Assembly: GCA_963823285.1 (NCBI GenBank)
Contig: CAWGKX010000006.1
Span: forward strand, 219,915-283,914
Source: an uncultured Bacteroidales bacterium
GTDB taxonomy: Bacteria; Bacteroidota; Bacteroidia; Bacteroidales; JAGOPY01
Direction: 5' to 3'
Length of the DNA: 64,000 bases
Numbering within the stretch: the first letter of the stretch is position 1; every line of letters starts with the position of its first letter. This document shows, piece by piece, positions 35,499 through 37,214 of this stretch. Below the pieces are notes generated by a model. The model had not been told where the DNA came from. It saw only the letters and a program-made list of their open reading frames with translations, and did not search any database. The position numbers were made by a program, and so were the translations under genes.

Positions 35499-37214
35499 TT
35501 AAAGCTCCAGCTCCAGATCCAGGCTTTCACGCAGCGTCTTCAGTTCGGGGTTTTTATCGACCATGGCCCTGTATTTTTCTTCGGCTGTGTAAGGTTTCGA
35601 CTGGCCGGTGGTTTCAACAAGAATTGTTTCTAACCGGATATCCTGGTTGCGCAATTCGCCGCGGAGAAAATCCAGCAGGTCAGTCCTTCTTTCTTTCAGT
35701 GTTATTTCCTGCGCCCGGTTATCGAGTTGCAGTTCAATGACGGAATTCGCTTTCAGCAGGGGCTTTCGTGTAGAGAGAATACTGTAAAAATTCGGATACT
35801 GGCCGGCTATGCTTTCCGTGTAATAGGTCCAGACCTTTTCTAATTTTTCCTGGCTGAACTCCTGCTGTTTCTCATTTTCCTTTTTATCGCCATCTTTAAC
35901 TTCCTGCCTTGTCCTGGGAACATGATTTTCAGGTTTAATCGAGATGGTCCTGGTACCTGCAGTTTGGACCGGGGGCTGAGCGGCTGCCGGTTTCGGATCT
36001 GCCGCCGGTTTCCTGGCTTCAGCAATCGTAGAAATGGGAAGGCTTTCTTCCACCTTGCTTTCCTTAACCCCATCTGGGGGAATCAGGGAATTTTTTTTTT
36101 CGCCGGAAGAATTATTTACCGTTGCAGAAGCGGTACAAATCTGCAACAGGGCCAGCTCGAGCTGGAGCCTCTTGTTGTTGCTGTTTTTATAGCTTTGATC
36201 GAACTGGTTATGGATTTCCAGCGCTTTCAGAAGAAATGCAGGCTTGCAACGGCCGGCCTGTGCGATATACTTTTGCCGCAGATTTGCGCTGATCTCTAAA
36301 AGTGTGACCGTGGCAGGATCCTGGCAGACCAAAAGGCTCCTGAGATGTTCGCCAAGCCCGATCAGGAAATGCTGACCGTCAAATCCCCGGTTGATGATCT
36401 CGTTGATGACCAGCAAAAGGCCGGATGTATCCCCGGCCAGTATATAGTCAAGTACCTTAAAATAGTAAGTATGATCGAGGATATTGAGATGCTCGGTGAC
36501 TGTTTCGTAAGTCAGCTTGTCGCCGGAGAGGCTCACGAGCTGGTCAAAGAAAGACAGGGCATCGCGCATGGCGCCATCGGCTTTCTGGGCAATCACATGC
36601 AAGGCCTCTTCTTCAGCTTCAACATTTTCCTTTTTTGCCACATAAGCAAGATAATCGGCAATATCCTTAACGCTGATGCGCTTGAAATCGAAAATCTGGC
36701 AGCGGGAAAGGATGGTGGGAATGATCTTGTGCTTTTCCGTTGTTGCCAGGATGAATTTTGCATAGGCCGGCGGTTCTTCCAGCGTTTTCAGGAAAGCATT
36801 AAAAGCCGATGCCGAAAGCATATGGACTTCGTCGATGATATAGACCTTGTATTTCCCCACCTGGGGCGGTATCCGGACCTGGTCGACCAGGTTCCTGATG
36901 TCTTCGACCGAATTGTTGGAAGCGGCATCGAGCTCATGAATGTTGAAAGAGGCGGAACGGTTGAATGACAGGCAGGACTCGCAATGATCGCAGGCATCCA
37001 CCTTATTGACAGGGTTAAGGCAATTAATGGTCTTGGCCAGGATACGTGCACAGGTGGTTTTTCCTACGCCACGCGGCCCGCAAAAAAGAAAAGCCTGGGC
37101 AAGCTGGTTGGTAAGGATGGCGTTTTTTAAGGTGGAGGTGATAGCCTGCTGCCCCACCACTGTGTCGAAAGTTGCCGGCCTGTACTTCCGGGCCGATACG
37201 ATGAAATTGTCCAT
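35499..37214 (-). CDS. dnaX: DNA polymerase III subunit gamma/tau
   Basis: Motifs: YRPATFDTVVGQ, GPRGVGKTT, a zinc module CDHCESC, IIDEVHML and ILSRCQIF. The C-terminal half is low-complexity and Pro/Ala/Lys-rich. Confidence 0.92.
   Translation of the reverse strand: MDNFIVSARKYRPATFDTVVGQQAITSTLKNAILTNQLAQAFLFCGPRGVGKTTCARILAKTINCLNPVNKVDACDHCESCLSFNRSASFNIHELDAASNNSVEDIRNLVDQVRIPPQVGKYKVYIIDEVHMLSASAFNAFLKTLEEPPAYAKFILATTEKHKIIPTILSRCQIFDFKRISVKDIADYLAYVAKKENVEAEEEALHVIAQKADGAMRDALSFFDQLVSLSGDKLTYETVTEHLNILDHTYYFKVLDYILAGDTSGLLLVINEIINRGFDGQHFLIGLGEHLRSLLVCQDPATVTLLEISANLRQKYIAQAGRCKPAFLLKALEIHNQFDQSYKNSNNKRLQLELALLQICTASATVNNSSGEKKNSLIPPDGVKESKVEESLPISTIAEARKPAADPKPAAAQPPVQTAGTRTISIKPENHVPRTRQEVKDGDKKENEKQQEFSQEKLEKVWTYYTESIAGQYPNFYSILSTRKPLLKANSVIELQLDNRAQEITLKERRTDLLDFLRGELRNQDIRLETILVETTGQSKPYTAEEKYRAMVDKNPELKTLRESLDLELEL
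36091..36100 (-). other. A10 homopolymer (T10 on the plus strand) inside dnaX, a candidate slippage/recoding site for a gamma-like product
   Basis: The mRNA reads GGC GAA AAA AAA AAT TCC CTG ATT, at residues 371-378. With A9 it reads ...KKIP-stop. With A11, or after a -1 shift, it reads ...KKKFPDSPRWG-stop. Confidence 0.45.

Follow-up and report, generated by a model that had tools for sequence, protein, structure and literature searches.

A predicted RNA-polymerase slippage site in the dnaX gene of an uncultured Bacteroidales bacterium

The dnaX gene and its A10 run

The DNA analysed here, referred to as the window, is a 64,000-nucleotide stretch of contig CAWGKX010000006.1 from an uncultured Bacteroidales bacterium (assembly GCA_963823285.1). 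A dnaX gene maps to the minus strand at 35499–37214, as identified from the list of open reading frames (ORFs) and from Pfam and NCBIfam matches, and its single frame encodes full-length tau (571 residues, 64.2 kDa). Within the gene, a run of ten adenines (A10) at 36091–36100 of the same strand (gene nucleotides 1115–1124) is proposed to be an RNA-polymerase slippage site at which a shorter product, gamma, would be obtained. This run, its counterparts in related bacteria and the mechanisms that may account for it are the subject of this report.

The dnaX product matches the Pfam families DNA_pol3_delta2, DNAX_ATPase_lid and DNA_pol3_gamma3, and residue 365 marks the end of domain III. The NCBIfam model PRK14971 is matched with 770.8 bits (cut-off 685), and TIGR02397 is also matched. 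Residues 1–365 correspond to domains I–III and are followed, in the same frame, by a low-complexity linker and by the tau-specific C-terminal region. The C-terminal part of the protein can be aligned with that of relatives as far as residue 570. In other bacteria, the C-terminal region of tau binds helicase and polymerase.

Around the run, the minus strand reads TCT TCC GGC GAA AAA AAA AAT TCC CTG ATT CCC CCA GAT GGG GTT AAG. The codons GAA AAA AAA AAT, which contain the run, specify residues 372–375 (G371 E372 K373 K374 N375), and 11 residues separate the last domain III helix from the run. The sequence-only reading had placed an A10 run (GGC GAA AAA AAA AAT, residues 371–375) at the boundary between domain III and the tau-specific part; the run was found again by pattern search, and its position past the last domain III helix and ahead of the linker was confirmed.

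Both alternative frames are closed shortly after the run. Translation with one A removed ends in ...GEKKIP and gives a protein of 376 residues (41.9 kDa). It is closed by a TGA codon in the +1 frame (36083–36085, minus strand), 2 codons past the run; this stop serves the 376-residue form, corresponding to an A9 mRNA, or a 377-residue form ending in ...GEKKKIP, corresponding to an A12 mRNA. Translation with one A added ends in ...GEKKKFPDSPRWG and gives a protein of 383 residues (42.7 kDa), closed by a TAA codon in the -1 frame (36064–36066, minus strand), 9 codons past the run. This second stop would be reached on mRNAs containing an additional A (A11, A14 and so on) or by a -1 ribosomal shift. 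The quick termination of both frames, which had been expected to leave gamma-like proteins of 376–383 residues, is therefore borne out by these translations.

Long A/T runs are rare in the genome from which the window derives (3.82 Mb, 45% GC), which contains 407 runs of 8, 55 of 9, 5 of 10, 1 of 11 and 1 of 12 nucleotides. Only two of the seven runs of at least 10 nucleotides fall in coding sequence, namely the dnaX A10 and a run in one insertion sequence (IS) transposase. The steep drop in the number of long runs, together with the presence of only two such runs in coding sequence, agrees with the selection against slippery runs that has been described (PMC1088944). The dnaX A10 run is more than chance.

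The other coding run is situated close to the N-terminal end of an ISKra4-like, GC-rich transposase (...PGEKKNGYQGASVTCPHCGQ...), encoded on the minus strand of contig C14 (C14:2769-4190) at the contig start. IS transposases are the other class of genes that exploit slippage (PMC1088944), and this run could be an IS slippage site of that kind.

Conservation of the run in Bacteroidota

The dnaX genes of relatives were sampled in four sets, consisting of 30 relatives of the same order, 80 named Bacteroidota, an even class-wide draw of 36 genomes and 52 genomes representing further classes of Bacteroidota. Conservation was assessed in a unified count over the 193 dnaX genes that could be located, a run being scored wherever nine or more consecutive A's were present at the boundary of domain III. 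An A9–A13 run is present at the homologous site in 138 of the 193 loci: 15/28 in the same order, 63/78 among named Bacteroidota, 30/36 in the class-wide draw and 30/51 in the other classes. A10 is by far the commonest length (101 loci), followed by A9 (26), A11 (9) and A13 (2). The distance between the last domain III helix and the run, determined in 120 loci, ranges from 1 to 27 residues in 118 of them, with a median of 10.

What is kept is the homopolymer and not the peptide. Among these 120 loci, the run starts in each of the three codon phases (70, 30 and 20 loci), and the peptides that it encodes differ among lineages (EKKN, LKKK, QKKK and others). The occurrence in all three phases and the differences in peptide sequence argue for a constraint on the DNA homopolymer and not on the protein, and a KKK motif conserved as a peptide is ruled out by the same variation in phase. 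Elsewhere in the compared dnaX genes, AAA accounts for only 68% of the lysine codons.

Out-of-frame stops were analysed in 67 single-ORF loci carrying the run, in comparison with control positions within the same genes. In the -1 frame, a median of 1 codon separates the run from the first stop, against 8 at the controls; in the +1 frame, the median is 4 codons, against 12. Both stops fall within 8 codons in 90% of the loci, in contrast to 20% of the controls; since the compared loci share descent, the p-values for the stops are optimistic, the flanking sequences being nevertheless widely divergent. The early +1 stop goes beyond what a purely ribosomal -1 mechanism would need, as only the -1 stop would be required. 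The sequence-only reading had pointed to relatives lacking the A-run or the nearby out-of-frame stops as the observation that would count against recoding, and the opposite was found for both features.

In 34 of the sampled loci the layout is reversed, in that the zero frame encodes gamma and is closed immediately past the run, and the C-terminal region of tau lies in another frame. Tau is reached through one extra A in 32 of these loci and through one fewer A in the remaining 2. Reversed loci are found in single-contig genomes and in several species of one genus, and in that genus A10 with gamma in frame (L189-L196) alternates with A11 with tau in frame (L131). If tau is assumed to be necessary, it follows that the run is slippery in this phylum. 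On these sequence grounds, and given the same assumption, the 34 reversed loci indicate that the dnaX run must be used for recoding in Bacteroidota.

The dnaX gene of the window is not of this two-ORF type, as tau is in frame. Within its genus, A10 is found in frame in five species, and one congener (L007) carries an A9 run that is in frame as well. In another congener (L013), an A9 run leaves gamma in frame and tau needs one extra A; this assembly consists of 4 contigs, and the shorter run is possibly a homopolymer error.

Proposed slippage and rival explanations

The A10 run probably serves for programmed slippage in the manner of Thermus dnaX, so that both tau and gamma would be obtained from one gene. 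RNA polymerase moving along the T10 template would form an all-A:T hybrid able to realign, and realignment would generate a mixture of dnaX mRNAs carrying 10 A's or other numbers, mainly extra A's. By ordinary translation, A10 and A13 mRNAs would give full-length tau (571–572 residues), A11 mRNAs would give the 383-residue gamma, and A9 and A12 mRNAs would give gamma of 376 or 377 residues. Both gamma forms would stop just past clamp-loader domains I–III. Runs of nine A/T residues are known to slip efficiently in vivo (PMC5009743, PMC1088944). In Thermus dnaX, as far as the work of Larsen (2000) is recounted in these two papers, slippage results in about 50% gamma, mainly through added A's. 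At about 50% efficiency, a single nucleotide change can swap the templated product (Atkins review, PMC5009743). The excess of extra-A layouts among the reversed loci (32 versus 2) fits the insertion bias reported for Thermus. We infer that slippage in this organism would occur mainly during transcription and would supply gamma in useful amounts.

The frameshifting cassette of E. coli dnaX comprises the heptamer A_AAA_AAG, an upstream Shine-Dalgarno (SD)-like element, a 3' stem-loop and a single tRNA-Lys (UUU). These elements were sought in the window. The in-phase heptamer of the run is A_AAA_AAA followed by AT (GA[A AAA AAA] AT) and not A_AAA_AAG. The upstream sequence, UAAUUCUUCCGGCG, contains no AGGAGG- or GGGAG-like (Shine-Dalgarno-like) element, and the Rfam DnaX frameshift element has no match in the window at E values up to 10. 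The 60 nucleotides past the run fold no better than shuffled sequences (z = -0.08), in keeping with the weakness previously ascribed to the downstream CCCC-N5-GGGG hairpin, and no conserved 3' stimulatory structure was detected across 120 loci (mean z = -0.39). An E. coli-type cassette is ruled out by the lack of an Rfam match, a 3' stem-loop, an SD-like element and an in-phase A_AAA_AAG. The genome carries genes for both tRNA-Lys(UUU) and tRNA-Lys(CUU).

Several of these features favour transcriptional slippage. The run is held at 10, above the threshold of about nine and three residues beyond a heptamer (PMC5009743, PMC1088944); early stops close both alternative frames; insertion-dependent and deletion-dependent layouts both exist; neither a 3' structure nor the Rfam DnaX element nor an SD-like element is present; and the genome has two tRNA-Lys species. 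The initial proposal of a gamma recoding site that probably works by transcriptional slippage is consistent with the conservation of the run in the phylum, the enrichment of stops, the 34 reversed loci and the lack of E. coli-type stimulators.

Programmed -1 ribosomal frameshifting on A_AAA_AAA, as in E. coli, might instead generate gamma, either alone or as a substantial second contributor. A AAA AAA stands in phase as a heptamer, and tRNA-Lys(UUU) is able to restore perfect pairing after slipping into the -1 frame; moreover, of the two stops the one in the -1 frame lies nearer to the run across the phylum (median 1 codon), 32 of the 34 reversed loci require a change equivalent to a -1 shift, and one congener (L004) has the in-phase E. 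coli heptamer in place of A10. We nevertheless regard this explanation as unlikely, as evidenced by the absence, documented above, of a 3' stimulatory structure in the window and across the 120 loci, of an Rfam match and of an upstream SD-like element, and by the presence of tRNA-Lys(CUU) next to tRNA-Lys(UUU). In E. coli, A_AAA_AAA has been reported to be much less shift-prone than A_AAA_AAG (PMC5009743). Three further points speak against a ribosomal mechanism: the run held by selection at 10, three more than the heptamer needs, the early closure of the +1 frame and the two loci that need the loss of one A to make tau.

That the run has no recoding function here, being an inherited, AAA-coded, lysine-rich linker whose slippage products are noise, is quite improbable. 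The run does sit in a low-complexity linker, AAA is the preferred lysine codon (68%), and several relatives, one congener among them, are devoid of the run. Yet length and position are kept across the phylum while codon phase and peptide vary, coding runs of at least 10 nucleotides are otherwise almost absent, stops are enriched in both other frames, and relatives exist whose tau depends on the run. We give very little credit to an effect at the DNA level (phase variation, with replication slippage giving a mixture of A9, A10 and A11 cells) or to a wrong run length in an indel-prone assembly. Tracts of ten A's are hot spots of mutation, single-A differences are seen between congeners (A10, in-frame A9 in L007 and out-of-frame A9 in L013), and at least one gene in the window is frameshifted. 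If tau is needed, as it is in other bacteria, however, a heritable frameshift would be tolerated only with rescue at the RNA level, which presupposes transcriptional slippage, and two other species (L002 and L003) have the same in-frame A10 arrangement between identical flanks.

Other observations, besides the shared descent of the loci used for the stop analysis, weigh against programmed transcriptional slippage at the A10 run. The run is dispensable, as most Bacteroides/Bacteroidaceae loci do without it. Even within the genus, one congener (L006) carries A8 at the site, L004 carries in-phase A AAA AAG in place of A10, and L005 has no run and features a repeated QKAEDRS linker instead. Some contribution of ribosomal frameshifting at the in-phase A_AAA_AAA, alongside slippage, is also to be considered, and we found no measured A10 slippage efficiency in the literature for any Bacteroidota RNA polymerase. 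Finally, because the assembly contains frameshifted genes, the length of the dnaX run could be off by one (A9 or A11). In this respect, the two closest congeners (L002 and L003) have an identical A10 and identical flanking frames; as A10 keeps tau in frame and the same run and flanks recur in these two congeners, the run length in the window is argued to be correct.

The frameshifted gene of the window encodes a secreted M16 peptidase (32505–35358, plus strand) and is split near 33100, away from any long homopolymer. Frame 0 ends in ...GNIGTIRLRQV followed by a stop, and the next frame carries on with ...SAISGLSDSARYDVVKRYYADWYRPD. The split suggests either an indel-prone assembly or gene decay.

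Hairpins were noted on the 5' side of the run. In the window, a 10-bp hairpin (CUGUUGCAGA...UCUGCAACGG; 36119–36149, minus strand; z = -2.77) lies within the sequence coding for the last domain III helix. It was rejected as part of the signal, as 18 nucleotides separate its end from the run and not even congeners conserve it, and it is probably incidental. A different type of hairpin, abutting the run, was scored in the 40 nucleotides 5' of the run when it ended no more than 3 nucleotides from the run and folded with an energy of at most -8 kcal/mol. Such hairpins occur in 41% of 120 loci (L001-L198), compared with 9% of control positions and 14% of shuffled sequences, and are absent from the dnaX gene of the window itself. 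In the relatives, they may act as terminator-like stimulators of RNA-polymerase slippage; a nascent-RNA hairpin is known to drive slippage in the Roseiflexus IS630 element (PMC5009743).

Boundary signals of other kinds were found in Bacteroidales dnaX genes that have no A-run. In three named metagenome-assembled genomes (MAGs) of rumen or gut Bacteroidales (L058, L078 and L082), dnaX carries an in-frame TAG exactly at the boundary between gamma and tau, past which tau is read on without a change of frame. The TAG features (L211-L240, gene nucleotides about 1090–1165) are shared by all 30 fetched relatives of one MAG, which belong to one Bacteroidales family, and a search for relatives of one TAG-bearing MAG revealed one TAG in 33 of the 36 best-scoring dnaX matches. 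The TAG is found in a conserved context, TAG AT(T/A) GCA AG(R), accompanied by a short hairpin in which stem bases change and pairing is kept. Some of the TAG-bearing dnaX genes use TAG as their final stop too, so these genomes have probably kept TAG as a stop codon. The boundary TAG looks like a programmed stop-codon readthrough site and is a candidate for the production of tau. One further match, the single TAG in the dnaX gene of G024, was rejected as an in-frame readthrough site, since it is the normal stop codon of gamma in a two-ORF gene with an A9 run. In another Bacteroidales MAG (L076, CAMVOL010000002), the zero frame of dnaX spans 383 residues without an A-run, and more than 260 residues follow in another frame; this gene may use yet another recoding device.

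Known systems and significance of the site

The closest counterpart of the window gene is the dnaX gene of Thermus thermophilus (Larsen 2000, PNAS 97:1683), as far as it is described in PMC1088944 and PMC5009743. In both genes tau is the product of a single ORF, the clamp-loader core is followed by a homopolymer of nine or more A's, and close stops are found in both other frames, so that any change in the number of A's that is not a multiple of three leads to gamma. According to the same accounts, ribosomal stimulators are missing from the Thermus gene, as they are from that of the window. The window differs from the Thermus gene thus described in having A10 and not A9, in belonging to the phylum Bacteroidota, in a longer -1 tail (9 codons) and in that its slippage is predicted from sequence.

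In Bacteroidetes and Chlorobi, A10 dnaX sites of Flavobacterium, Cytophaga, Capnocytophaga and Chlorobium have been predicted to use transcriptional realignment (Antonov 2013, NAR 41:6514, PMC3711429, Suppl. Fig. S3). These two-ORF genes share with the window the phylum, the A10 run, the domain boundary and the predicted mechanism, and the same layout is observed in congener L013 and in many of the sampled relatives. The polarity is opposite, as in the window tau is the zero-frame product and gamma would be the product of slippage. The single-ORF form would escape frameshift detectors of the GeneTack kind. We found no description of the single-ORF poly-A dnaX form in Bacteroidales in the literature beyond PMC3711429, PMC5009743 and PMC1088944.

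With E. coli dnaX, in which gamma is produced by -1 programmed ribosomal frameshifting (Rfam RF00382), the window shares the gene, the boundary, a gamma lacking the tau C-terminus and an in-phase, A-rich heptamer. In contrast to E. coli, the window has no AAG, SD-like element or 3' stem-loop and its genome has two tRNA-Lys species and not one; in addition, the run exceeds the seven residues of a heptamer, and stops close the two alternative frames. The mechanism is already known from Thermus, and an A10 site was predicted for the phylum in 2013 in the reversed layout. The window is thus an ordinary, well-supported example, with no new mechanism.

A broader reading of the comparison is offered more tentatively. 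Throughout the Bacteroidota-Chlorobi lineage, the dnaX A-run might have been inherited as an ancient recoding element acting at the DNA level, and it might double as an evolvable dial. If A10 slippage is efficient, one-base changes would flip the templated product, as in the alternation of A10 and A11 in one genus or of A10 and out-of-frame A9 in the genus of the window. Lineages may swap the run for A AAA AAG, for an in-frame UAG with a 3' signal, or for nothing. By analogy with Roseiflexus IS630, the nascent-RNA hairpin abutting the run on its 5' side in about 40% of lineages could tune slippage.

For annotation, these results mean that dnaX genes of Bacteroidota should carry a note of an expected second product of about 42 kDa, and that split dnaX genes in relatives should not be labelled as pseudogenes or assembly errors. 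Why bacteria retain the gamma form is a standing question (bioRxiv 10.1101/2022.11.10.516041). A phylum with natural variants in which tau is templated, gamma is templated, the run is lost, or the run is replaced by a stop codon provides material for addressing it.

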